Virus record (IMG/VR): IMGVR_UViG_2671180603_000009
Location: 1-9,304 of that record
Direction: 5' to 3' (one strand)
From: a virus
Taxonomy: Duplodnaviria; Heunggongvirae; Uroviricota; Caudoviricetes
DNA length: 9,304 bases
The notes below the pieces were generated by a model. That model worked only from the letters and a program-made list of their open reading frames with translations, ran no database searches and had not been told where the DNA came from. The translations under genes and the position numbers were made by a program. Positions 132-9,304 of the stretch are shown in pieces; the first letter of the stretch is position 1; each line of letters opens with the position of its first letter.

Positions 132-161
132 GCCTGCACAGTGTGCAGGCTTTCTTTTTTT
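132..161 (+). terminator. Rho-independent terminator-like hairpin followed by T-run
   Basis: Perfect 8-bp inverted repeat GCCTGCAC (132-139) / GTGCAGGC (143-150) with 3-nt loop, then tttcttttttt (151-161). T-run is on the plus strand, so it would stop rightward transcription running into the minus-strand gene that ends at 161. Confidence 0.5.
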
Positions 162-436
162 CAGATTTCACCTTTTAATTTCATTGCAATCAGAGTTGCC
201 AGAAATTCGGCTTTTTTTTCTGCGGGCAGATTCTTTCCTATGTGCACCAGACACATTTTTTTTACACCATCGTTAAGTGTTTTAACGTTGCCTGATGGAC
301 CGTCGATATCAACCACAGTGAATGGGGTTTCTTTATTTTCTGTCTTAATCACGTAGCCAATACGCTTTCCTTCCAGATTAACCTCGTGAACAATGTCATC
401 AGTAGTTACAACAGTGGCTTCATAACTGGTAATCAT
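161..436 (-). CDS. hypothetical prophage protein (91 aa)
   Basis: ORF track 161-484; start chosen at internal ATG 436 (MITSYEAT...) because it is preceded by AAGGAG at 6-7 nt spacing. No family recognised. Confidence 0.65.
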   Translation of the reverse strand: MITSYEATVVTTDDIVHEVNLEGKRIGYVIKTENKETPFTVVDIDGPSGNVKTLNDGVKKMCLVHIGKNLPAEKKAEFLATLIAMKLKGEI

Positions 437-469
437 GTTTTTCTCCTTAATTAAGGTTGAGCGAACCCC

Positions 470-483
470 TGCCATTGCTGGCA
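470..483 (-). other. conserved hairpin at cassette boundary (GCAA tetraloop on minus strand); second copy at 1281-1294
   Basis: TGCCA-ttgc-TGGCA on plus, i.e. UGCCA-GCAA-UGGCA on minus; identical sequence at 1281-1294 downstream of each small-peptide gene. No U-run follows, so not called a terminator. Confidence 0.35.
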
Positions 484-520
484 TATAAGAATGAAACCGG
501 ATATTTATTACGGAACTGTT

Positions 521-712
521 TTAAAGACCTGCCGGGATTTCGTTATTATCATGGTGAATAACTTTATCGACCGGATAACAGTCACCGGGAATTTTCTGTT
601 TCGCTGCGGCAGTCATACATTCTTTCATTGAGCTGTATACGCCAGTAACCATGTCAACCGGTTCACCGGAAACAAGAAAAACCGTCAGAACGAGTGCAAA
701 TACTGTATTCAT
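521..712 (-). CDS. small putative secreted peptide, 63 aa (cassette copy 1)
   Basis: ORF track 521-766; start taken at ATG 712 (MNTVFALVLTVFLVSG...), which gives a hydrophobic signal-peptide-like N-terminus and an ATGA overlap with the stop of the upstream ORF at 709; two conserved Cys in the mature part; paralog at 1332-1523. Confidence 0.55.
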   Translation of the reverse strand: MNTVFALVLTVFLVSGEPVDMVTGVYSSMKECMTAAAKQKIPGDCYPVDKVIHHDNNEIPAGL

Positions 713-897
713 TGTGCACATCCTTTTGGCATCAGACGTAAACGAGCCAGCATTGAAACAATGCATATTTTATTTAATAGCTCCCGTTCGTGTTTTCTCT
801 TGTTAATGGCATCTTCAGTAAATACAGGGTTACTGATAGTGACACCAATTTCAAAACAACCTTCAGACGTATTAACGTTTGGTAATAACGTCTCCAT
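709..897 (-). CDS. hypothetical 62-aa protein (cassette copy 1)
   Basis: ORF 709-897; ATG 897 preceded by GAGGA at 7 nt; stop overlaps start of the peptide gene (ATGA); ~90% identical paralog at 1520-1708. Confidence 0.5.
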   Translation of the reverse strand: METLLPNVNTSEGCFEIGVTISNPVFTEDAINKRKHERELLNKICIVSMLARLRLMPKGCAQ

Positions 898-907
898 TAT
901 TGCGTCC

Positions 908-1238
908 TCAACAATGAATTTTGAGTAATTGTTCCACAGTCATATTTTTAATTGCGCCCCGGTTAACAAGAGTCCATCCCTGTTTTTCCAGATAAAACCG
1001 GAAAGTCTCCAGGGGACAGACCAGTGCGCCATCAGGAACGGTTTCGGTGAATTCGACATTGCCGAATTTGTCGAAGTGAACAACCAGGGTGCGGCCATCG
1101 CCTGGAATTATTTTGTCAGTGGGTGGGGTGTTATTCTGGCGCAGTTCGGCCTCCATGCGATCGAACTCAGCAATGTAGGCTTCTTTGAATGCGGCGGNNN
1201 NNNNNNNNNNNGGCGGCGCAAATAAAGACTTTACTCAT
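908..1238 (-). CDS. standalone homolog of the C-terminal domain of the Rha-like protein, interrupted by N-run 1198-1211
   Basis: Translation 908-1197 (...AAFKEAYIAEFDRMEAELRQNNTPP...LLKIHC) is ~92% identical to the C-terminal ~95 aa of the 1719-2276 protein. A candidate start ATG at 1238 (MSKVFICAA, GAGG upstream) lies beyond the N-run; frame across the Ns cannot be verified. Confidence 0.45.
1198..1211. other. run of 14 N (assembly gap or masked bases) inside a coding region
   Basis: Literal n characters; flanked on both sides by GCGGCGG-like sequence. Confidence 0.95.
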
Positions 1239-1331
1239 TTTGTTTTAACCTCATTACAGATTTAAGGGTGAACAAATCCCTGCCATTGCTGGCATATAAA
1301 AATGAAACCGGATATTTATTACGTGGCTGCT

Positions 1332-1523
1332 TTAAAGACCTGCCGGGACTTCTTTATTATCCTGGTGAATGATTTTATCAACCGGATAACAGTTACCGGG
1401 AATTTTCTGTTCAGCTGCAGCAGCCACGCATTCTTTCATGGAGTTGTATACTCCGGTAACCAGTTCAGCTGGTTCGCCCGTATTAAGAATAACGGTCAGA
1501 ACGAGTGCAAATGCTGTATTCAT
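1332..1523 (-). CDS. small putative secreted peptide, 63 aa (cassette copy 2)
   Basis: Start ATG 1523 (MNTAFALVLTVILNTG...), ATGA overlap with upstream ORF; ~75% aa identity to the 521-712 product. Confidence 0.55.
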   Translation of the reverse strand: MNTAFALVLTVILNTGEPAELVTGVYNSMKECVAAAAEQKIPGNCYPVDKIIHQDNKEVPAGL

Positions 1524-1708
1524 CGCCAGCATCCTTTTTGCATCAGACGCAAACGAGCCAGCATTGAAACAATGCATATTTTATTTAATGACTCCCGTTC
1601 GTGTTTTCTCTTGTTAATGGCATCTTCAGTAAATACCGTGTTACTGATAGTGACACCAATTTCAAAACAACCTTCAGTCGTATTAACGTTTGGTAATAAC
1701 GTTTCCAT
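1520..1708 (-). CDS. hypothetical 62-aa protein (cassette copy 2)
   Basis: ATG 1708 preceded by GAGGA (overlapping the rha stop codon); paralog of 709-897. Confidence 0.5.
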   Translation of the reverse strand: METLLPNVNTTEGCFEIGVTISNTVFTEDAINKRKHERESLNKICIVSMLARLRLMQKGCWR

Positions 1709-1718
1709 TATCGCGTCC

Positions 1719-2276
1719 TCAACAATGAATTTTGAGTAATTGCTCTACAGTCATATTTTTAATTGCGCCCCGGTTAACAAGAGTCCATCCCTGTTCTTCC
1801 AGATAAAACCGGAAAGTCTCCATGGTACAGACCCGTGCGCCATCAGGAACGGTTTCGGTGAATCTGATGTTGCCGCGTTCGTCGAAGTGAACAACCAGGG
1901 TGCGGCCATCGCCTGGAATTATTTTGTCAGTGGGTGGGGTGTTATTCTGGCGCAGTTCGGCCTCCATGCGATCGAACTCAGCAATGTAGGCTTCTTTAAA
2001 TGCAGCGGCTTTTTTGCCAGTGAATCCCATCACCAGGAAAACGAAGCCGTTTTTGGTGATTTGGTACATCGGGCGTTTTTCGCCTTTGGCGTCAGTGTAG
2101 GTGACGTCCTCAAAATTGAGGGCGTTAAATTCAGGTGAGCATTCAGTATTTGCGATGGCACGTAACACATTGTCGTGACGCTTGCCAAAGAACTCTGCGA
2201 TCGCAATAGACGTAGTGACAGCGCGACCATTTTCGATGGTTACGTCAGGGTGAGAAAGGGCAGGGATAGTAGCCAT
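1719..2276 (-). CDS. rha: Rha-family phage regulatory protein (185 aa)
   Basis: Start ATG 2276-2274 preceded by GAGGA at 7 nt. Translation contains the Rha-family signature as I recall it (...IAEFFGKRHDNVLRAI...FVFLVMGFTGKKAAAFKEAYIAEFDRMEAEL). ORF track extends to 2573 but that upstream extension is not accepted as coding. Confidence 0.8.
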   Translation of the reverse strand: MATIPALSHPDVTIENGRAVTTSIAIAEFFGKRHDNVLRAIANTECSPEFNALNFEDVTYTDAKGEKRPMYQITKNGFVFLVMGFTGKKAAAFKEAYIAEFDRMEAELRQNNTPPTDKIIPGDGRTLVVHFDERGNIRFTETVPDGARVCTMETFRFYLEEQGWTLVNRGAIKNMTVEQLLKIHC

Positions 2277-2316
2277 GATGGCATCCTCGAGTGATAAGTT
2301 AATTAACTCACCACCG

Positions 2317-2729
2317 AGGTTTTCCACGACCATAAGGGTGGTGTGACGTACAGGGGTGGAAATACCGGTCACTCGAGAACCCGGCCAGTCTTGCGACTGC
2401 CCTGCACATCCCACCATAATTTGAATGGAGCTGTGCATTACGCATAAAAAAACCGCTTCAGCGCGGCTATGCGCTCGAGTAACGTTCGGGTTTCCACGCC
2501 CGGCACCCGTTTTATAAGGTGCAGGTGCACTATAATTCCACCCGTTCTGGTTTTCAATAGCTACATTCAACATTTTCTCTTTCCTTTCATCACCGAAGTG
2601 AACTTTGTTGATGCGGTGCCTGGTGCCTCCAGGTGACGTTAACCAGTTAACAATTAACGCCGGATACAGGGAAACCCATAACCACCCGATACGGGGGAAC
2701 TAATCGCTTTTTAACTGTGCCGCGTGCGC
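2317..2729. repeat. copy 1 of a ~413-nt tandemly duplicated non-coding element immediately upstream of rha
   Basis: Aligns base for base with 2731-3143 (about 32 differences, ~92% identity); hairpin-rich; see findings. Confidence 0.9.
2446..2469 (-). terminator. terminator-like hairpin plus U7 within element copy 1
   Basis: Plus strand aaaaaaa (2446-2452) followed by ACCGC-ttcag-(c)GCGG; on the minus strand this is a GC hairpin followed by seven U. Stem is short (4-5 bp). Confidence 0.35.
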
Positions 2730-2730
2730 N

Positions 2731-3143
2731 AGGTTTTCCACGACCATAAGGGTGGTGAGACGTACAGGGGTGGAAATACCGGTCATCACGGAACCCGGCC
2801 AGTCTTGCGACTGCCCCGCACGCCCCACCATAATTTGAATGTGGCTGTGCATTACGCATAAAAAAACCGCCTGAGCGCGGTTATGCGCCGTGAATGACTT
2901 CGGGGTAGCAATCCCGGCACCCGTTTTATGAGGTGCAGGTGCACTATAATTCCACCCGTTCTGGTTTTCAATAGCTACATTCAACATTTTCTCTCACCTT
3001 TCATCACCGAAGTGAATTTTGTTGATGCGGTGCCTGGTGCCTCCAGGTGACGTTAACCAGTTAACAATTAACGCCGGATACAGGGAAACCCATAACCACC
3101 CGATACGGGGGAACTAATCGCTTTTTAACTGTGCCGCGTGCGC
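2731..3143. repeat. copy 2 of the ~413-nt tandemly duplicated element
   Basis: See 2317-2729; a single n at 2730 sits exactly at the junction of the two copies. Confidence 0.9.
2860..2883 (-). terminator. terminator-like hairpin plus U7 within element copy 2
   Basis: Plus strand aaaaaaa (2860-2866) then ACCGC-ctgag-(c)GCGGT; minus strand reads as a hairpin followed by U7. Confidence 0.35.
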
Positions 3144-3177
3144 TGAGCCGCATTCACCGCATCACAAAATTCACTTT

Positions 3178-3218
3178 AAAAAGGGCGGACATCAGCCAGC
3201 AATGAAACTGATGCCGCC
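3178..3218 (-). terminator. candidate Rho-independent terminator on the minus strand
   Basis: GGCGGACATCAG (3184-3195) pairs with CTGATGCCGCC (3208-3218), 11 bp with one bulge and a 12-nt loop; on the minus strand the hairpin is followed by CCCUUUUUAAA (plus a-run 3178-3182). Confidence 0.4.
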
Positions 3219-3418
3219 AAAGGTACCAATCAACATGGAGTGTTGTGGCGTGGTTGTCACTTAAGCGTATGGTCAACCTGACAACCCGGTGTCCTCAACG
3301 GGGAAGGAATAACTCCGCCATACTTACCGCCGCGTCATTTCGCGTTGTGTGCCTGCTTTTAACCACGTCAGGCGAGGTGGTATCCTTCTTATCCCGAATA
3401 ACCAAGAAGGAAATCTAT

Positions 3419-3619
3419 ATGACTAAAGAAGAATTTGTCTCTTATATTTTTGATAAAACGGTTGAAATGTATGCCGCTACTTACGGGTCCTGTAATCCTC
3501 TGAATAAACCAGAGGGAAAAGATGATTTCGACAAAATTTACCGCTTCTTGGAGGACCGCTATATCAAAAGCTTAGAGGACGCAGGGATCAAATCCCCAGT
3601 GAAGTCACCATTGTCCTGA
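3419..3619 (+). CDS. hypothetical small protein (66 aa), the only plus-strand gene in the left arm
   Basis: ATG 3419 preceded by AAGGAA at ~7 nt; the ORF track start at 3245 uses an alternative start with no RBS and is rejected; 3' end overlaps the convergent gene 3588-3965 by 32 bp. Confidence 0.5.
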   Translation: MTKEEFVSYIFDKTVEMYAATYGSCNPLNKPEGKDDFDKIYRFLEDRYIKSLEDAGIKSPVKSPLS

Positions 3620-3965
3620 GAACTTGCAGAACGTCATGATCATAACTTCCATCCAAACCGCGACGGCGAATTGCTTCTCGTATTACCGGAAGCAGTTCGC
3701 TGGAAATCTCGGTGCATATTTCACCTGATAATACGCTTGGCTCAAGTGAGAATATTGGTGAACTTACGGTCTTGGTCTCGACAGTTTCAGAGTCAGTGCC
3801 AACATTATAAAGCTCAACGAAAGCGGTCTTGATTTTCCGGGCCAGATCTTTTGCTGGCTCGCTTGCAATATCTTTCCCGATTTCTCGCAGCACAGAATGC
3901 AATGTATGAGCTGCTGTTTTCTGTACATCAGACGGTAAATCTTTAAATTCCATCGTCAGCCTCAT
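3588..3965 (-). CDS. hypothetical protein (125 aa; 121 aa if started at ATG 3953)
   Basis: ATG 3965 overlaps the stop of the upstream gene (TGATG coupling); alternative ATG at 3953 has GAGG 6 nt upstream. No family recognised. Confidence 0.6.
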   Translation of the reverse strand: MRLTMEFKDLPSDVQKTAAHTLHSVLREIGKDIASEPAKDLARKIKTAFVELYNVGTDSETVETKTVSSPIFSLEPSVLSGEICTEISSELLPVIREAIRRRGLDGSYDHDVLQVLRTMVTSLGI

Positions 3966-4117
3966 CAGTCAGTGTTTCTGGCTAACCAGCAACGCGCGCC
4001 AGATTCGGTTTTAAACGTTTTGCTTTTGGTATACGTCATGGCGGTAAACGTTCCATCCTGGTTAGGGAACACGCCGCACACCAGAGATTCGTTGTTGCCA
4101 AGATCGATAGTATCCAT
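3965..4117 (-). CDS. hypothetical small protein (50 aa; 68 aa if started at 4171)
   Basis: ORF track 3965-4171; ATG 4117 (MDTIDLG...) has GAGGT 5 nt upstream whereas ATG 4171 has no obvious RBS. First gene downstream of the operator-controlled leftward promoter. Confidence 0.45.
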   Translation of the reverse strand: MDTIDLGNNESLVCGVFPNQDGTFTAMTYTKSKTFKTESGARCWLARNTD

Positions 4118-4296
4118 GCTGACCTCATTTCCCCTTAACGCCGGGGTGGCGGAACAAAAAACCTGCTGCATAGTTAAAGATTGAACCCTGCCGTCATGTT
4201 CTTACGCCTCGGGCTGGCTACTTAACCCCTGACCACTGTCTGGTAACTCGAAGTATTGCCCTGCATTCTGTGGGGCGGGGTGGGTTGACGCCTGAA

Positions 4297-4338
4297 AAAA
4301 TAGCATCATTATTTTTTGATGTAAATAGCATCGCTATT
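4297..4338 (-). promoter_or_regulatory. leftward early promoter (PL-like) overlapped by two repressor-operator-like inverted repeats
   Basis: Minus strand reads TTTACA (plus 4320-4325), 17-bp spacer, TATTTT (plus 4297-4302). Inverted repeats AATAG-N5-(C/T)TATT at 4299-4313 and 4324-4338, centres 25 bp apart, overlap the -10 and -35; same motif recurs at 5434-5473. Confidence 0.5.
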
Positions 4339-4350
4339 GTTTTTGTTGGG

Positions 4351-4377
4351 GCAAGAAAAAACCACCCTAAGGTGGTT
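4351..4377 (-). terminator. Rho-independent terminator downstream of the toxin gene
   Basis: AACCACC-ctaa-GGTGGTT (4360-4377) preceded on plus by an A-run (4356-4361); on the minus strand this is a 7-bp stem followed by UUUUUUC, 17 nt after the stop at 4394. Confidence 0.6.
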
Positions 4378-4393
4378 CTGTCGGCGGGAATAA

Positions 4394-4684
4394 TTAACTG
4401 TTTTTGCCTGGATACTGTCTTCGAGAATGCACAATATTTACTACTTCTATGCTTGATGCTGTTACTCGGTAAAGGATGATGTAGTTAGGATGAGTTACAA
4501 TTTCACGAAGACCAAGAACTCGCTCGCTTGGAGGATACAGGTAAGGATGCTCTGTGAGCGGCAAAACGGATGTTTCAATTCGAATTTTCATTCTGCGTGC
4601 TGCCGCGGGATTTTCTTTAGCTATGTAGGCTACGATCTGGCGCAAATCATCACGAGCAGATGGTAGCCATAAAACGGGTAACAT
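4394..4684 (-). CDS. parE: ParE/RelE-superfamily toxin (96 aa)
   Basis: Translation MLPVLWLPSARDDLRQIVAYI...HPYLYPP...LREIVTHPNYIILYRV...VVNIVHSRRQYP matches my recollection of ParE-type toxins; start overlaps the stop of the upstream antitoxin gene (TAATG). Confidence 0.8.
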   Translation of the reverse strand: MLPVLWLPSARDDLRQIVAYIAKENPAAARRMKIRIETSVLPLTEHPYLYPPSERVLGLREIVTHPNYIILYRVTASSIEVVNIVHSRRQYPGKNS

Positions 4685-4878
4685 TATTCACCTCTGTGAG
4701 TTGCAGCAGCAATTTGGGCAATAATTTGTTCCATTTCCGCCATTACCTCATCATGCGGAATCGCCGGGCGGGGATCCGCGAGGCTTGCTGCTACTTTGGC
4801 CCGCAGCCATTCGTTGTAACTATTTTCTTGCTCAACTGTCTCAAATTCTGAAACCATTGGGGAAAGGACTGTACTCAT
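4684..4878 (-). CDS. small antitoxin (64 aa), likely PaaA/ParD-like partner of the ParE toxin
   Basis: Small acidic protein directly upstream of and translationally coupled to the toxin gene; AGGAG-like RBS about 12 nt upstream of ATG 4878. Resemblance to the PaaA2 antitoxin of E. coli O157 is from memory and unverified. Confidence 0.65.
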   Translation of the reverse strand: MSTVLSPMVSEFETVEQENSYNEWLRAKVAASLADPRPAIPHDEVMAEMEQIIAQIAAATHRGE

Positions 4879-4897
4879 TTTACATATCTCCTCTGAT

Positions 4898-5398
4898 TTA
4901 GGCGCGACGGCCTTTTTGTGCAGCTAACCACCGCGCAACCGTACGATCCATTGATTCTTTTTTATCTTTCATCTCCTGAAGCATGTGTTCTTGATCTTCT
5001 TTCGGAAAAGCTCTGAACGTATGGATTAAATCTCGTTCCATCGGCTCTACGGCAAACGGTAGTTCATCCTCTGTTTGTTCTGTGTCTGCTGGTAATGCGA
5101 CTATGTTATCTTGCTGTGGTTCTCGACAATACATCCTTGCAATTTGCAGCAAATCTACCATGTCTGGCCTGATTGACTCAGGGGGAACTTTCAGTAAGCC
5201 AGCAAACTTTAGAACAGCCTCAAGGTTTAGTGGGGTTTGACCATTTAGGTAGTGACTTACCGCCCCTTGTGTTGAAAACCCCATAATTTCCGCCGCACGT
5301 TCCTGAGTCAATCCCAACTGAGATTTCTTTGCCATCCAGATTTCTTTCAGTCTTCTGGCGGCGTTGAGGTCGGTGTCTGACAATGATTTTCTTTTCAT
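4898..5398 (-). CDS. HTH (XRE-family) transcriptional repressor, RacR/PaaR-like, 166 aa
   Basis: ORF track 4898-5428 (GTG start); ATG 5398 (MKRKSLSDT...) preferred. HTH-like segment LGLTQERAAEIMGFSTQGAVSHYLNGQ; acidic C-terminus with no recognisable S24 peptidase (LexA-like) motif; divergent from the Cro-like gene and 19 nt upstream of the antitoxin gene. Confidence 0.75.
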   Translation of the reverse strand: MKRKSLSDTDLNAARRLKEIWMAKKSQLGLTQERAAEIMGFSTQGAVSHYLNGQTPLNLEAVLKFAGLLKVPPESIRPDMVDLLQIARMYCREPQQDNIVALPADTEQTEDELPFAVEPMERDLIHTFRAFPKEDQEHMLQEMKDKKESMDRTVARWLAAQKGRRA

Positions 5399-5405
5399 AC
5401 ATCCA

Positions 5406-5475
5406 ATTCTAATAAGATTGCTAATCACTTTGAAATAGCATCACTATTTACTTTTAAAAATAACAGTGCTATTAA
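5406..5475. promoter_or_regulatory. divergent promoter/operator region (OR-like)
   Basis: Inverted repeats AATAG-catca-CTATT (5434-5448) and AATAA-cagtg-CTATT (5459-5473), centres 25 bp apart, plus weaker AATAA-gattg-CTAAT (5411-5425). Plus-strand TTTACT (5447-5452), 17 bp, TATTAA (5470-5475) upstream of the Cro-like gene; minus-strand TTTCAA/18 bp/TAGAAT (plus 5406-5411) just upstream of the repressor ATG. Confidence 0.5.
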
Positions 5476-5509
5476 TTATGCATTGGTAACACATCACATA
5501 GGGCGGATT

Positions 5510-5773
5510 ATGAATCTTGGAGAATATTTGCATCATTTTCATATAACCCAGAGTTCATTTGCTGAGATTGTTGGCGCATCCCAAGGGATGGTCAGCCACG
5601 TTATAACGGGGCGTGCAAAACTTACAGGAGAAAAAATATTACGTTGGTGTGAAGCAACGGGATGGGTGGTGACCCCACATGAGATTGACAGTAAAACCTA
5701 CCCCAACCCAACTGACGGCTTGCCTGCTGAGTTTCAGGCTAACACACAACCATCGGCGGGGGTTGATTCATGA
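5510..5773 (+). CDS. Cro-like / YdaS-family HTH protein (87 aa)
   Basis: ATG 5510 (MNLGEYL...); ORF track start 5483 is a TTG. HTH-like TQSSFAEIVGASQGMVSHVITGRAK; first rightward gene divergent from the repressor; stop overlaps next gene (ATGA at 5770-5773). Confidence 0.7.
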   Translation: MNLGEYLHHFHITQSSFAEIVGASQGMVSHVITGRAKLTGEKILRWCEATGWVVTPHEIDSKTYPNPTDGLPAEFQANTQPSAGVDS

Positions 5774-6195
5774 AAATCAAGCATGAACACATCCGCATGG
5801 CGATGAAAGCCTGGGCGCATCCGGACGGTGAAAAAGTTCCGGCAGCTGAAATAACCAGGGTTTATTTCGAACTGGGAATGACGTTTCCGGTTCTGCATAA
5901 CGACAGCAAGCACAACACGCTTTATCTCAACACCCAAAAGATTTTCCGTTGGCTGGATAAAGACACCCCTGACGCTGTTGAAAAAATTCAGGCGTTGTTA
6001 CCTGCGATCGAAAGGGCAATGCCACCTCCGCTGGTGGCTCGAATGCGCAGCCACAGTTCAGCTTATTTTCGGGAACTGGTGGAGACGCATGAACGACTGG
6101 TGAGAGACGCTGATGATTTTGTCGCAGTGGCAATCGCCGGTTTCAATCAGATGAACCGTGGTGGCCCGGCAGGAAATGCTGTGGCAGTACATTGA
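5770..6195 (+). CDS. YdaT-like protein (141 aa)
   Basis: N-terminus MKIKHEHI... and position directly after the Cro-like gene match my recollection of Rac prophage YdaT-family proteins; translationally coupled to the upstream gene. Confidence 0.7.
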   Translation: MKIKHEHIRMAMKAWAHPDGEKVPAAEITRVYFELGMTFPVLHNDSKHNTLYLNTQKIFRWLDKDTPDAVEKIQALLPAIERAMPPPLVARMRSHSSAYFRELVETHERLVRDADDFVAVAIAGFNQMNRGGPAGNAVAVH

Positions 6196-6266
6196 CTGAC
6201 AATAGCCATATCGAATCGCTCCCGGCAACTCGTGAGTAAAAAGATTCGGTATCAGAAGAGGTGAGT

Positions 6267-7331
6267 ATGGCTAACGCCTGGCTCAGATTATGGCATGACA
6301 TGCCAAATGACCCTAAGTGGCGAACAATTGCCAGGGTGTCAGGGCAGCCAATTGCAACAGTGATGGCAGTGTATATCCACCTCCTGGTGAGCGCGTCACG
6401 AAATGTCACGCGAGGTCACATTGATGTCACGACAGAAGATTTGGCAAGTGCGCTCGACGTGACAGAAGAGGTAATTGATTCAATTTTGCAGACGATGCAG
6501 GGGCGGGTACTTGATGGTGATTTAATCACTGGATGGGAAAAACGCCAGGTGCTTAAAGAGGACAACGGCAATATTTCGCAAACCGCAAAATCTCCTGCAG
6601 AGCGCAAGAGGGCGCAGCGAGAGAGGGAAAGAAAGCGGGAACAAAATGGCGATTGTCACGGCGCGTCACGAAATGTCACGCACATGTCACGACGAGTCAC
6701 GACAGATACAGATAAAGATACAGATAAAGAAGATCAAAACACTATGGTCCATGGCGTAAAAAACGCCACGAACCAGGCAGGGGATGTTCAGACCGTCAAT
6801 CCTGGTCAGCCAGCAGGCTCGACACCGGAAGCCGATTCAGCGTATGCGCTGAAAGCCGATTCGGGCGCTGTGCAGCAGGTGATGACCGCAAGGCCGGAGC
6901 AATCACTCCAACTGCAGCAGCCTGAAGCCGATTCCGCCATTCAGCGGGAAGCCGATCGGGTAGCCCCGGAAAACACCGGGCAGCCTGTGGGACGAGTGGA
7001 TTATCCGGATGTGTTCGAACAGGTCTGGCGGGAATACCCGTTGCGTGCCGGGGCAAACCCGAAGAAATCCGCATTCAGTGCCTGGAAGGCCAGATTGCGC
7101 GAGGGGGTGCCACCAGAGACCATGCTGGATGGTGTGAGGCGTTACGCGAGATACCTGGCGGCGACCGGGAAAGCGGGAACGGAATTTGTTCAGCGAGCGA
7201 CGACGTTTTTTGGGCCGGACCGGAATTTTGAAAACCCCTGGTTGCTCCCGGTAAGCGGCACGAACAACCAGCGTTGTGTGAATCATATTTCTGAACCGGA
7301 TACCGAAATTCCGCCGGGATTCAGGGGGTGA
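6267..7331 (+). CDS. phage replication initiator / replisome organizer (O-like, YdaU-type), 354 aa
   Basis: ATG 6267 preceded by AGAGGTGA; N-terminus MANAWLRLWHDMPNDPKWRTIA... is typical of prophage replication proteins as I recall them; iteron-like repeats lie inside the gene; followed 6 nt later by a DnaC-like gene. Confidence 0.8.
   Translation: MANAWLRLWHDMPNDPKWRTIARVSGQPIATVMAVYIHLLVSASRNVTRGHIDVTTEDLASALDVTEEVIDSILQTMQGRVLDGDLITGWEKRQVLKEDNGNISQTAKSPAERKRAQRERERKREQNGDCHGASRNVTHMSRRVTTDTDKDTDKEDQNTMVHGVKNATNQAGDVQTVNPGQPAGSTPEADSAYALKADSGAVQQVMTARPEQSLQLQQPEADSAIQREADRVAPENTGQPVGRVDYPDVFEQVWREYPLRAGANPKKSAFSAWKARLREGVPPETMLDGVRRYARYLAATGKAGTEFVQRATTFFGPDRNFENPWLLPVSGTNNQRCVNHISEPDTEIPPGFRG
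6388..6430. repeat. iteron cluster 1 (four GTCAC(G/A) repeats at ~10-bp spacing)
   Basis: GTCACG at 6392, 6402, 6423 and GTCACA at 6412; the 21-mer gcgcgtcacgaaatgtcacgc (6388-6408) is repeated exactly at 6661-6681. Confidence 0.6.
6654..6728. repeat. iteron cluster 2 (five GTCACG repeats) plus AT-rich 12-bp tandem repeat; candidate replication origin
   Basis: GTCACG at 6655, 6665, 6675, 6686, 6696 (spacing 10/10/11/10), then gatacagataaa x2 (6705-6728). Arrangement resembles phage lambda, whose origin lies inside gene O. Confidence 0.55.
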
Positions 7332-7337
7332 TGTGGC

Positions 7338-8084
7338 ATGAAAAACATTGCGGCAGCCGGGGTTCTTGAACGTATTCACAGACTTGCACCACAGGGGGCG
7401 GTTCCACCGTACCGGACGGTGGAGGAGTGGCGGGAATGGCAACTTGCTGAAGGACGAAAACGCAGCGAGGAGATTAACCGCCAGAATCGCCAGTTGCGGG
7501 TGGAAAAAATCCTGAATCGTTCGGGCATCCAGCCTCTGCACAGCAAATGCTCGTTTGCGAATTATCAGGTGCAGAACGACGGGCAAAAATACGCGCTGAG
7601 CCAGGCCAAATCCATAGCTGACGAACTGATGACCGGGTGCACGAATTTTGTGTTCAGCGGTAAAACCGGCACCGGGAAAAATCACCTTGCAGCGGCGATG
7701 GGTAACTGGCTGATGGCGAAGGGGCGCAGCGTGATTATCGTCACCGTGTCTGATGTCATGAGCGTGTTGCATGACAGCTACGACAACGGCAAATCCGGTG
7801 AAAAATTTTTACAGGAGCTTTGCGGGGTTGATTTGCTGGTCCTGGATGAAATAGGCATTCAGCGGGAGACGAAAAACGAGCAGGTGGTATTGCACCAGAT
7901 AATTGATCGCCGGACAGCATCACTGTGCAGTGTCGGGATGTTAACAAACCTGAATCATGCCGCAATGAGCACGCTTCTTGGTGAGAGGATTATGGACCGC
8001 ATGACCATGAACGGTTGTCGGTGGGTGACGTTTAACTGGGATAGCTGGCGTTCAAATGTCAGCTTTCCGGGAGTTGTGAAGTAA
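7338..8084 (+). CDS. DnaC/IstB-like AAA+ helicase loader (248 aa)
   Basis: Walker A GKTGTGKNHLAAA and Walker B LLVLDEIG visible in the translation; start 6 nt after the initiator stop. Confidence 0.85.
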   Translation: MKNIAAAGVLERIHRLAPQGAVPPYRTVEEWREWQLAEGRKRSEEINRQNRQLRVEKILNRSGIQPLHSKCSFANYQVQNDGQKYALSQAKSIADELMTGCTNFVFSGKTGTGKNHLAAAMGNWLMAKGRSVIIVTVSDVMSVLHDSYDNGKSGEKFLQELCGVDLLVLDEIGIQRETKNEQVVLHQIIDRRTASLCSVGMLTNLNHAAMSTLLGERIMDRMTMNGCRWVTFNWDSWRSNVSFPGVVK

Positions 8085-8105
8085 TTTTTGTTGGAGGATG
8101 TTTTA

Positions 8106-8831
8106 ATGGAAACTGTATTTGACGCACTGAAAGCACTGAAAAGAGCCTCTTCACATGTGGTGGCGTCCCGCCTTGGAATCAGCCGTGAAGATGCGGTCAA
8201 CGAACTGTGGAAACTGAAGCGCCGTGGTGAAGCGGATAACAAGGGTTCGATGTGGTGGCTGATTCAGGCTGGTGAAAGTGAACCAGTGTCACCGGTACCG
8301 AAAGTGACAGCGCAAATGCTGACTGAGGCGATTGAACAACATGGCCCACAAACGGCGGATGAGCTGGCACTGATGTTCGGGATTACCTCCCGCCGGGCGA
8401 ATTCATCGCTGGCCATGGCAATCAGCAAAGGGCGTCTGATTCGCGTGAATCAGGGCGGTAAATTTCGGTACTGCATACCGGGCGCTGATTTACCGGCAGA
8501 GCCGAAAGCCGCATCCATAGCGGAAACGGATGGTAAAGTCTTTCCTCAGCCAGCAGGTGTTGCGTTACCGGTACAGGAAGCTGCAACACAGGAAGAAATT
8601 AAAACAGAAACTGTGGCGGACATTGTGCAGTCGTTGCCATCGTTCACCGAAACGCAAGCGGATGACCTGGTTTTACCATCGCTGCATATGGCAAACCGCG
8701 AACTGCGTCGGGCGAAAAGTCATGTCCAGAAGTGGGAGCGTGTCTGCGCCGCGTTGCGGGAGCTGAACAAGCACCGGGATATTGTTCGACAGATTGTCGA
8801 TTCCTCCGGTCGTATTGTGTCGGAAAAGTGA
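8106..8831 (+). CDS. hypothetical prophage protein with two winged-helix-like repeats (241 aa)
   Basis: ATG 8106 preceded by GGAGGA; ORF track start 8088 is TTG. Two similar N-terminal segments ([10 protein letters not shown]...; [10 protein letters not shown]...), acidic linker, coiled-coil-like C-terminus. Family not verified. Confidence 0.6.
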
Positions 8832-8846
8832 TTGCCGGGGGCGCTT

Positions 8847-9269
8847 ATGGCAAAAGTATTTACACAGGAAGAGCGGGAAAAAATTAAGGGGCAGGTTGTT
8901 GAACTCGTACGCCAGAGTGGGCGCGAGACGTTACGACAACTGGAAGCTAAAACCGGGGCGACAAGATATTTAATAAGCGTTCTCGCCAGAGAGCTGGTTG
9001 CCAGTGGGGATGTATACAACTCTGGCTACGGGTTATTCCCGTCTGAACAGGCTCGTAAGGACTGGCAAAACGCCCGCAAAAAACTCTCGAGGGCAAAGCT
9101 GAAGAAACCATCTGTGGTTGATCCGGACCTTATCTGGTCATTACCAGACGGAGAAATACGCCGCTACGACAGACATCAGAACATAATCTGTCGCGAGTGC
9201 CGGAAGAGTGAAGTTATGCAGCGTGTACCGGCTTTCTATCAGGGTGATTTTCAGGAGGCGGTACTGTGA
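8847..9269 (+). CDS. hypothetical protein (140 aa)
   Basis: ATG 8847 preceded by GGGGG at ~6 nt; ORF track start 8832 is TTG; basic, possibly DNA-binding; no family recognised. Confidence 0.55.
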   Translation: MAKVFTQEEREKIKGQVVELVRQSGRETLRQLEAKTGATRYLISVLARELVASGDVYNSGYGLFPSEQARKDWQNARKKLSRAKLKKPSVVDPDLIWSLPDGEIRRYDRHQNIICRECRKSEVMQRVPAFYQGDFQEAVL

Positions 9270-9304
9270 GTGAAATTAGCTATCAGGCTTCAATTACCGC
9301 TGGC

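Follow-up and report, generated by a model that had tools for sequence, protein, structure and literature searches.

A dicBF-type prophage operon with isrK, C4 and rha, and an apparent tandem dicB–ydfD cassette most likely produced by scaffolding

Results

Gene content of the locus

The window analysed here, that is, the whole stretch of 9,304 nucleotides, is the entire record CXDK01000158.1 of draft assembly GCA_001252175.1. Read along the minus strand, it presents a DicA/CI-like repressor, a PaaA2/ParE toxin–antitoxin pair, a ydfA-like gene (DUF1391), a DicF-like sRNA, an isrK promoter, isrK, C4, rha, dicB, ydfD and ydfE, in this order. The HTH repressor (4898–5428) is encoded on the same strand as dicB, which places dicB in the operon context of a DicA-type repressor.

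Two stretches, 451–1197 (copy 1) and 1262–2010 (copy 2), are collinear and 91% identical, with a spacing of 811–813 bases; their alignment of about 748 bases contains 64 mismatches and 2 gaps, a similarity far beyond chance. Gene by gene, the copies differ by 5–15%. The two collinear homologous stretches on which the initial annotation based its reading, a tandemly duplicated three-gene cassette, are thus present. Their left flanks are unlike. Copy 1 lies beside a hypothetical protein of 91 aa (161–436, minus strand; NCBIfam PRK09790, phrog_4778), whose gene follows ydfD in the Rac-like prophage, and the PRK09790 gene is also found beside ydfD in the compared loci L016, L019 and L021. Copy 2 lies beside a ydfE-type exonuclease gene, which normally follows ydfD in the Qin-like prophage and of which the first 9 codons (MSKVFICAA; 1212–1238, minus strand) are present before a block of N cuts it; an exonuclease/YdfE gene occupies the corresponding position in loci L001, L002, L004, L006 and L009.

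Each copy holds an intact ORF of 62 aa and one of 63 aa on the minus strand, as initially described. Judged by profile matches and by identity to K-12, the 62-aa protein is DicB in both copies. Copy 1 (709–897, Rac-like allele) matches PF05358 with E = 3.8e-40 and NF049927 with 134.6 bits and is 97% identical to K-12 DicB, and copy 2 (1520–1708, Qin-like allele) matches with E = 1.7e-36 and 130.7 bits and is 87% identical. In the same order, the PF05358 scores of the two copies are 135.8 and 124.1 bits, the cut-offs being 27 bits for PF05358 and 100 bits for NF049927. In both copies dicB lies directly upstream of ydfD and overlaps it by ATGA, as in K-12, which confirms the overlap described for the two small ORFs.

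On the same kind of evidence, the 63-aa protein is identified as YdfD/DUF1482, which is the lysis protein of Qin. The Rac-like allele in copy 1 (521–712, minus strand; PF07358 E = 7.7e-23) is 75% identical to K-12 YdfD and lies inside the segment 1–1014, which is identical to the Rac-like locus L019; the Qin-like allele in copy 2 (1332–1523, minus strand; E = 2.9e-21) is 67% identical to K-12 YdfD and 100% identical to L008 and L006. The PF07358 scores, in the same order, are 80.6 and 75.5 bits (gathering score 25). Alignment with K-12 YdfD reveals that C32 and C45 are invariant.

The initial annotation had left both small proteins without a function and had taken the 63-aa product for a secreted peptide. 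Pfam, NCBIfam and identity to K-12 assign both to known families, and the literature lends the secreted peptide no support: according to PMC8835842, YdfD, at 63 aa, binds the enzyme IspG and lyses the cell, an effect that is prevented when DicB stops division. DicB, at 62 aa, recruits MinC and so blocks Z-ring formation (PMC6832061); PMC10448788 is a further source on the functions of these genes. In fact, rha, dicB, ydfD, isrK and C4 are all already characterised or curated families, and the cassette is the known prophage gene set rha-dicB-ydfD. Among the outcomes that the annotation itself named as speaking against it was that the small ORFs be known lysis or Kil genes; since both proteins are known genes, this is what we find.

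The regulator of copy 2 (1719–2276, minus strand, 185 aa) belongs to the Rha family and is a putative antirepressor. It matches PF09669 (E = 2e-32; 112 bits against 29.9) and TIGR02681 (123.3 bits against 45.95), as well as phrog_995 and anti-repressor PHROGs, and the Rha assignment of the initial annotation was therefore right. A Rha protein in each copy had also been proposed; this holds for copy 2 by both profiles, but copy 1 retains merely the last 96 codons of rha (908–1197, minus strand), which run into 14 N and are of the copy-2 (Qin-like) allele over their final ~110 bases. Profile search of this C-terminal fragment returned no Phage_pRha domain. The ribosome-binding site described as overlapping the upstream stop is present, with GAGGA overlapping the rha stop codon (TGTTGAGGACGC.ATAATG).

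We rejected as rha the 284-aa ORF at 1719–2573, which is PGAP's Rha protein and reads through isrK and C4. Its start lies upstream of the −10 element of the isrK promoter, and we therefore take ATG 2276, giving 185 aa, as the likely start on sequence grounds.

Small RNAs upstream of rha

Upstream of rha, all on the minus strand, lie a Qin-type C4 antisense RNA (2334–2421; RF01695, 70.9 bits against a gathering score of 45) and an isrK sRNA (2446–2522; RF01394, 61.2 bits against 50). A promoter and terminator scan places a promoter TTGAAA-17-TATAGT at 2529–2557 and the isrK terminator, a GC hairpin followed by a T run, at 2451–2468. A second isrK/C4 unit follows at 2731–3143 on the same strand (C4 2748–2835, isrK 2860–2936, promoter 2943–2971), with Rfam scores of 80.5 bits against 45 for C4 and 64.8 bits against 50 for isrK; it is a Qin/Rac/Qin mosaic. 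Further upstream, the DicF-like sRNA (3183–3231, minus strand) is syntenic with K-12 dicF and scores 38.8 bits with RF00039, under the gathering score of 48 (E = 1.4e-6).

The 12-nt loop of C4, GUUCUCGAGUGA, is complementary to the rha leader, UCACUCGAGGAU, and the complementarity covers the Shine–Dalgarno sequence. We judged this pairing by loop-level duplexes, which give −18.2 kcal/mol for the cognate leader and −7.1 kcal/mol for the leader of the other, non-cognate prophage; whole-molecule duplex folding merely ranked cognate above non-cognate. Between the Qin-like and the Rac-like prophages, C4 loops and rha leaders differ together. Between C4 and rha, where P1 has icd, the only ORF seen is one of 45 aa (2308–2445) that overlaps C4 and leaves 31 bases to the rha ATG at 2276, without overlap coupling to rha.

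Assembly of the window and comparison with complete genomes

The window contains just two stretches of N, each exactly at the join of one of its two large direct repeats. The first is a scaffold gap of 14 N (1198–1211, no strand) between a Rac-like and a Qin-like piece, with matches to complete genomes ending on both sides. The second is a single N at 2730 (no strand), at which the second direct repeat joins, 2317–2729 being repeated at 2731–3143. The window is a short-read draft scaffold of three pieces (1–1197, 1212–2729 and 2731–9304) joined by N. We considered and rejected masking by the data provider, as the deposited NCBI record is equally long and identical to the window over its first 7,156 bases. 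The N block where the two copies join went unmentioned in the initial annotation.

Comparison with complete genomes points to two separate origins. Sequence of the window has 100% identity to HE616528.1-type loci (S. sonnei type), and complete Shigella sonnei-type genomes have copy 2 with its flanks just once, in a Qin-like prophage. In the complete genomes L008 and L006, sequence matching 1212–2729 (99.8–100%) is followed directly by sequence matching 3144 onward (100%), and therefore both repeats are single-copy there. Positions 1–1197 have their match elsewhere in those complete genomes, in a Rac-like prophage that lies 80–210 kb away from the Qin-like locus. There are 11 mismatches to the Rac-like locus, and nine of them, at 1088–1160, are the copy-2 allele. 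Piece 1 is accordingly, in all likelihood and as far as these matches indicate, the paralogous rha'-dicB-ydfD of another, Rac-like prophage of the same genome.

The second isrK/C4 unit alternates in segments between two S. sonnei-type alleles and is absent from the corresponding position in the complete genomes compared. Piece 3 most probably opens with a chimeric second copy of isrK/C4, 413 bases long, given this segmental pattern. A natural third allele was also considered and rejected, the best full-length match among 5,426 complete E. coli genomes being 94%.

The tandem itself was sought more widely. Related sequence is matched in 4,731 of the 5,426 complete E. coli genomes, and a match spanning the tandem in none of them (0/5,426). 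Among the loci listed for the two DicB alleles (L005–L014 and L015–L024), none of 20 has a second dicB within 5–6 kb. The junction, searched for as an rha fragment, 0–30 bases and the exonuclease start, was not found in genome, viral or metagenome contig collections; applied to the window, the pattern does match, and the handling of N is therefore not the reason for the missing matches. A phage record with the tandem was sought as well, and the best phage matches cover ≤40% of the window. That the duplication be an assembly artefact was the other outcome which the initial annotation had set against its own reading, and both the N at the joins and the complete genomes argue for it indirectly: the tandem is most likely an artefact, with copies from two different prophages joined across N in a draft assembly.

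Two observations on the assembly count the other way. The deposited scaffold has this order, and pieces are adjoined by a scaffolder, which normally reflects some read-pair links; the small N block could perhaps be a real junction left unresolved. The adjacency would then be real: illegitimate or short-homology recombination would have put a Rac-type rha'-dicB-ydfD downstream of the Qin-type cassette, isrK/C4 would be truly duplicated with gene conversion, and the N would mark unresolved spots. The hexamer GCCGCC flanks the N block to left and right (ATG..TGCGCCGCC and CCGCCGCATTC), which makes a short-homology join conceivable, and gene conversion between neighbouring paralogs could also yield the allele switch at 1088–1160. 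We nevertheless regard this explanation as unlikely, because each N stretch falls exactly on one of the two repeat joins, and because the arrangement occurs in no complete E. coli genome and in no related complete genome, the mosaic isrK/C4 unit likewise being found in no complete E. coli genome. Moreover, if the gap is taken at its written length of 14 N, the exonuclease start does not share a reading frame with the rha fragment, the truncated rha product, of 82 aa, is recorded in this contig alone, and the scaffold measures just 9.3 kb, typical of repeat-bounded prophage fragments.

A true in-situ duplication of one cassette followed by divergence, as the initial annotation had it, would fit the collinear layout and regular spacing but is highly improbable, since the genes have diverged to the extent given above, the left flanks differ, and in complete genomes the two copies have their 99–100% matches at different prophage loci (copy 1 being identical over 1–1014 to the separate Rac-like locus, copy 2 identical to the Qin-like locus), so that the copies are orthologues of two distinct prophage loci.

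Discussion

Taken together, the sequence comparisons make us confident that this is the distal part of an early-left operon of dicBF type, which belongs to a Qin-like lambdoid prophage and carries an isrK-C4-rha insert; its apparent tandem is most likely a scaffolding artefact. The closest known counterpart is the K-12 Qin dicBF operon (dicA / ydfA-ydfB-ydfC-dicF-dicB-ydfD-ydfE), which shares with the window dicB of 62 aa, ydfD of 63 aa, their 4-nt overlap and ydfE after them, as well as a DUF1391 gene and a DicF-like RNA upstream and a repressor/Cro-like pair further upstream. Unlike K-12, where the dicF region abuts dicB directly, the window has a module of ~1.3 kb (isrK promoter, isrK, C4 and rha) between the two. 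It also differs in having a 125-aa protein in place of ydfB and ydfC, in the presence of the PaaA2/ParE pair, and in its DicF-like RNA, which has another 5' seed and scores below the Rfam threshold.

The inserted module resembles isrK-orf45-anrP of Gifsy-1 in Salmonella (PMC4825925), in that both have an isrK-family sRNA, equipped with a sigma-70 promoter of its own and a leaky terminator and followed first by a 45-aa ORF and then by an antirepressor-like gene; rha holds the position equivalent to anrP. In Gifsy-1, the antirepressor start shares an AUGA with the stop codon of the small ORF before it, giving translational coupling (PMC4825925), whereas such coupling is absent from the window because its 45-aa ORF stops 31 bases short of the rha ATG. 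Two further differences are that dicB and ydfD follow the antirepressor gene in the window, and that the window lies in an early-left operon whereas the Gifsy-1 locus adjoins antQ (PMC4825925).

Similarities also extend to the immI region of P1 and P7 (c4, icd, ant), where a C4-family RNA lies upstream of an antirepressor-type gene on the same strand, with its loop complementary to the downstream ribosome-binding site, and a cell-division inhibitor is part of the operon. Citron and Schuster reportedly described, in 1990, P1/P7 hetero-immunity with alleles that differ in loop and target together (cited in PMC8201110), as do those of the Qin-like and Rac-like prophages. The co-differing C4 loops and rha leaders suggest, by this analogy with P1 and P7, that one genome harbours two antisense specificities that are hetero-immune. 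The division inhibitor of the window is DicB, downstream of rha, while that of P1 is Icd, upstream of ant; the regulator is of the Rha family and not P1 Ant, and the host element is a lambdoid prophage and not the P1 plasmid prophage.

The sequence features suggest how the operon may be controlled. The 12-nt loop of C4 would pair with the rha ribosome-binding site and gate rha; translation of dicB would be coupled to the rha stop and that of ydfD to dicB via ATGA. Because of this chain of coupling, rha, dicB and ydfD would probably be co-produced only when the RNA gate opens.

The initial annotation had further guessed at a new exclusion or immunity module composed of a regulator and an exported peptide. 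The part concerning exclusion is right by coincidence, since DicB is reported to block, via the same MinC interaction, DNA entry by ManYZ-dependent lambda-type phages (PMC6832061); the N-terminus of YdfD, for its part, is hydrophobic. A new module of this kind is nonetheless scarcely credible: both families are already characterised, YdfD is reported to act on IspG and not as an exported peptide (PMC8835842), and PADLOC defence models gave no match to the window proteins.

Were the join real in this one isolate, for which we see a slim chance, a single operon would carry two diverged DicB/YdfD pairs together with an upstream hybrid isrK/C4 unit having a Rac-type loop and a Qin-type second site. 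If true, this would be natural recombination between prophages, with modules of toxic small proteins stacked and the specificities of antisense immunity mixed. In sum, under the preferred reading of a scaffolding artefact, the locus is a caution that paralogous prophage modules in short-read drafts can mimic tandem duplications with diverged copies once contigs have been joined over small N gaps.

Identity and layout of the three genes

Profile matches identify the 62-aa protein as DicB (PF05358, Pfam, 124 and 136 bits, cut-off 27; NF049927, NCBIfam, 131 and 135 bits, cut-off 100), with 97% (copy 1) and 87% (copy 2) identity to E. coli K-12 DicB. The 63-aa protein is, by the same kind of evidence, a member of DUF1482, the YdfD family (PF07358, Pfam, 75.5 and 80.6 bits, cut-off 25), and is 75% and 67% identical to K-12 YdfD (annotated ‘lysis protein’), with both cysteines kept. 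The gene upstream of dicB is assigned to the Rha family through matches to PF09669, TIGR02681 and PHROGs annotated transcriptional regulator or anti-repressor. The two small proteins, which the initial annotation had considered unassignable, are therefore DicB and YdfD, and its interpretation is supported in part. No PADLOC defence model matched the Rha-family, DicB or YdfD proteins.

All three genes are already known, and PGAP annotates the region as ‘Rha family / DicB / DUF1482 / exonuclease’. DicB binds MinC and blocks Z-ring formation, and raises lambda resistance ~100-fold through a MinC-dependent inhibition of ManYZ (PMC6832061). YdfD, which binds the MEP-pathway enzyme IspG, causes lysis, and co-expression of DicB or SulA prevents this; dicB and ydfD partially overlap in one operon (PMC8835842), which is under DicA repression that an antirepressor relieves (PMC10448788). 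Since 4,731 of 5,426 complete E. coli genomes match the region, the rha-dicB-ydfD arrangement with isrK-C4 is, at the sequence level, common in E. coli. In many complete and draft genomes IS1 copies flank rha on either side or replace it. IS1 lies at or around rha in the S. sonnei-type Qin-like prophage loci L006, L007 and L009-L013, and dicB-ydfD is intact in every such locus.

The initial observation is confirmed in part. As first described, the copies are collinear homologous stretches (451-1197 and 1262-2010), with 64 mismatches and 2 gaps over ~748 bases. The minus-strand 62-aa (709-897; 1520-1708) and 63-aa (521-712; 1332-1523) ORFs are intact, and the described coupling is present in either copy: the upstream gene's stop codon falls within the overlap with a GAGGA ribosome-binding site, and the two ORFs overlap by ATGA. 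The Rha-type protein claimed for each copy holds for copy 2, preceded by a complete 185-aa rha (1719-2276, minus), and fails for copy 1, where the last 96 codons of rha are followed by 14 N (1198-1211). Directly right of this block, and reading towards it, an exonuclease gene is represented by its first nine codons (MSKVFICAA). Between copies, nucleotide difference is 5% for the rha C-terminus, 7% for dicB and 15% for ydfD, each with a pN/pS of 0.4-0.6.

Origin of the tandem arrangement

We compared the window with complete genomes carrying the copy-2 DicB allele, including HE616528.1, an accession cited in S. sonnei papers. Window positions 1212-2316 match the Qin-like loci L008 and L006 at 100% and 2317-2729 at 99.8%; in both loci, window position 3144 onward (100% match) follows directly after 2729, neither direct repeat is doubled, and ydfE stands where the window has N and copy 1. 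Positions 1-1197 match a different, Rac-like prophage in the same genomes (HE616528.1, ~1.96 Mb versus 1.75 Mb for the Qin-like locus; CP032523.1, ~4.16 Mb versus 4.08 Mb), where rha is full-length and the 91-aa downstream neighbour of copy 1 recurs. Bases 1-1014 are identical to this Rac-like locus, and nine of the 11 mismatches to it fall at 1088-1160 and bear the copy-2 allele; the sequence at the end of the 1-1197 piece thus switches paralog. By these alignments the copies are orthologues of two distinct prophage loci, whether or not their adjacency is real, and hence not the in-situ tandem duplication originally proposed.

The adjacency itself is very probably a scaffolding artefact, an assessment resting on several independent observations: the source of the record, its N positions, the complete genomes, the paralog switch, a mosaic repeat unit and the lack of another example. 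The window is the entire 9,304-base record CXDK01000158.1, a short scaffold of draft assembly GCA_001252175.1. N occurs in it at two places only, 1198-1211 and 2730, and it has only two large direct repeats (451-1197/1262-2010 and 2317-2729/2731-3143), each with one of these N stretches precisely at its join. When short-read assemblies are scaffolded and then gap-filled, small N gaps are known to remain with false duplications and paralog contamination on their flanks, and this may have happened here. In the second isrK/C4 unit (2731-3143) the core is Rac-type and the ends are Qin-type; in its C4 the loop is Rac-type and the second site Qin-type. Over its full length this unit matches no complete E. 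coli genome at more than 94%.

A real, isolate-specific juxtaposition of the copies is improbable. Records of the truncated, 82-aa product of rha come from the window's contig only, and the junction pattern was not found in other collections of genome, viral and metagenome contigs. None of the 5,426 complete E. coli genomes gave a tandem-spanning match (their ‘88% coverage’ matches span ~1.65 kb only, because both copies map onto a single locus), and none of the 20 loci listed has a second dicB within 5-6 kb.

Neighbouring genes

Upstream of the isrK and C4 RNAs that precede rha, a DicF-like sRNA (3183-3231, minus; Rfam, 38.8 bits, gathering score 48, E = 1.4e-6) is syntenic with K-12 dicF. 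Its 5′ seed region differs from that of K-12 DicF and is 8 bases shorter, and its targets may therefore differ as well. Relative to K-12, the window has the isrK-C4-rha module inserted between its dicF region and dicB. Upstream of the DicF-like RNA lie genes for a 125-aa protein and a DUF1391 (ydfA-like) protein and, beyond these, a PaaA2/ParE pair, an HTH repressor and a divergent Cro-like gene. The pair (PaaA2-type antitoxin, 64 aa; ParE-type toxin, 96 aa; 4394-4878, minus) has the prophage repressor on one side and the ydfA-like gene on the other; related E. coli prophages carry RelB/RelE, HigB/HTH or nothing in its place. Downstream, the 91-aa protein (161-436, minus; PRK09790, NCBIfam; phrog_4778) matches no Pfam family; in Rac-like prophages its gene is flanked by ydfD and recE.

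Small RNAs upstream of rha

isrK (2446-2522 and 2860-2936, in the units proximal and distal to rha) and C4 antisense RNA (2334-2421 and 2748-2835) each occur twice on the minus strand, that of rha, all above the Rfam gathering score. Each isrK has a predicted strong, sigma-70-like promoter (TTGAAA-17-TATAGT) and a predicted hairpin-plus-T-run terminator. A match to STnc100 (3018-3171, minus; Rfam, 31.6 versus 47 bits, E = 9.5e-5) is below threshold; it lies upstream of the distal isrK promoter, with homologous sequence upstream of the proximal one (~2604-2729).

The order isrK, 45-aa ORF (2308-2445) and rha is that of the Gifsy-1 isrK-orf45-anrP locus, where transcripts that continue past the isrK terminator form a long, translationally silent mRNA activated in trans by IsrK (PMC4825925). 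Unlike Gifsy-1, the window has no AUGA coupling, since 31 bases separate the end of the 45-aa ORF from the rha ATG. A second resemblance in layout is to P1 immI, in which the antirepressor Ant is controlled by C4 RNA and Icd (PMC8201110).

PGAP's Rha protein is a 284-aa ORF (1719-2573, minus) that starts upstream of the isrK promoter -10 element and reads straight through isrK and C4. Its Phage_ASH match (PF10554, Pfam; residues 14-109) is the translated isrK/C4 region, and part of this family may therefore model translated regulatory RNA.

Family membership and the literature show that a repressor-controlled early-left operon ends in rha-dicB-ydfD. We propose that transcripts begun at the isrK promoter, or reading through from further upstream, would pass a leaky isrK terminator. 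C4 RNA, which as in P1 is probably processed out of this same transcript, would mask the rha ribosome-binding site. Once this block is lifted, ribosomes would translate rha and re-initiate first at dicB, where Shine-Dalgarno and rha stop overlap, and next at ydfD via ATGA. From the literature, DicB would stop division and close the ManYZ entry route, and YdfD would inhibit IspG, with lysis held back while DicB blocks division.

We compared C4 loops and leaders of the window (2334-2421 and 2262-2333, minus) with those of the Rac-like locus L019 (4297-4456). In computed duplexes, the proximal C4 12-nt loop GUUCUCGAGUGA pairs with UCACUCGAGGAU of the rha leader, covering the GAGGA Shine-Dalgarno (-18.2 kcal/mol), and the duplex of the Rac-type loop GUUCCGUGAUGA with its own leader has -16.5 kcal/mol, versus -7.1 and -12.4 kcal/mol for the cross pairs between the prophages. 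By these energies, C4 loop and rha-leader target differ together between Qin-like and Rac-like prophages, which suggests, by analogy with P1 and P7, two hetero-immune antisense specificities in one genome.
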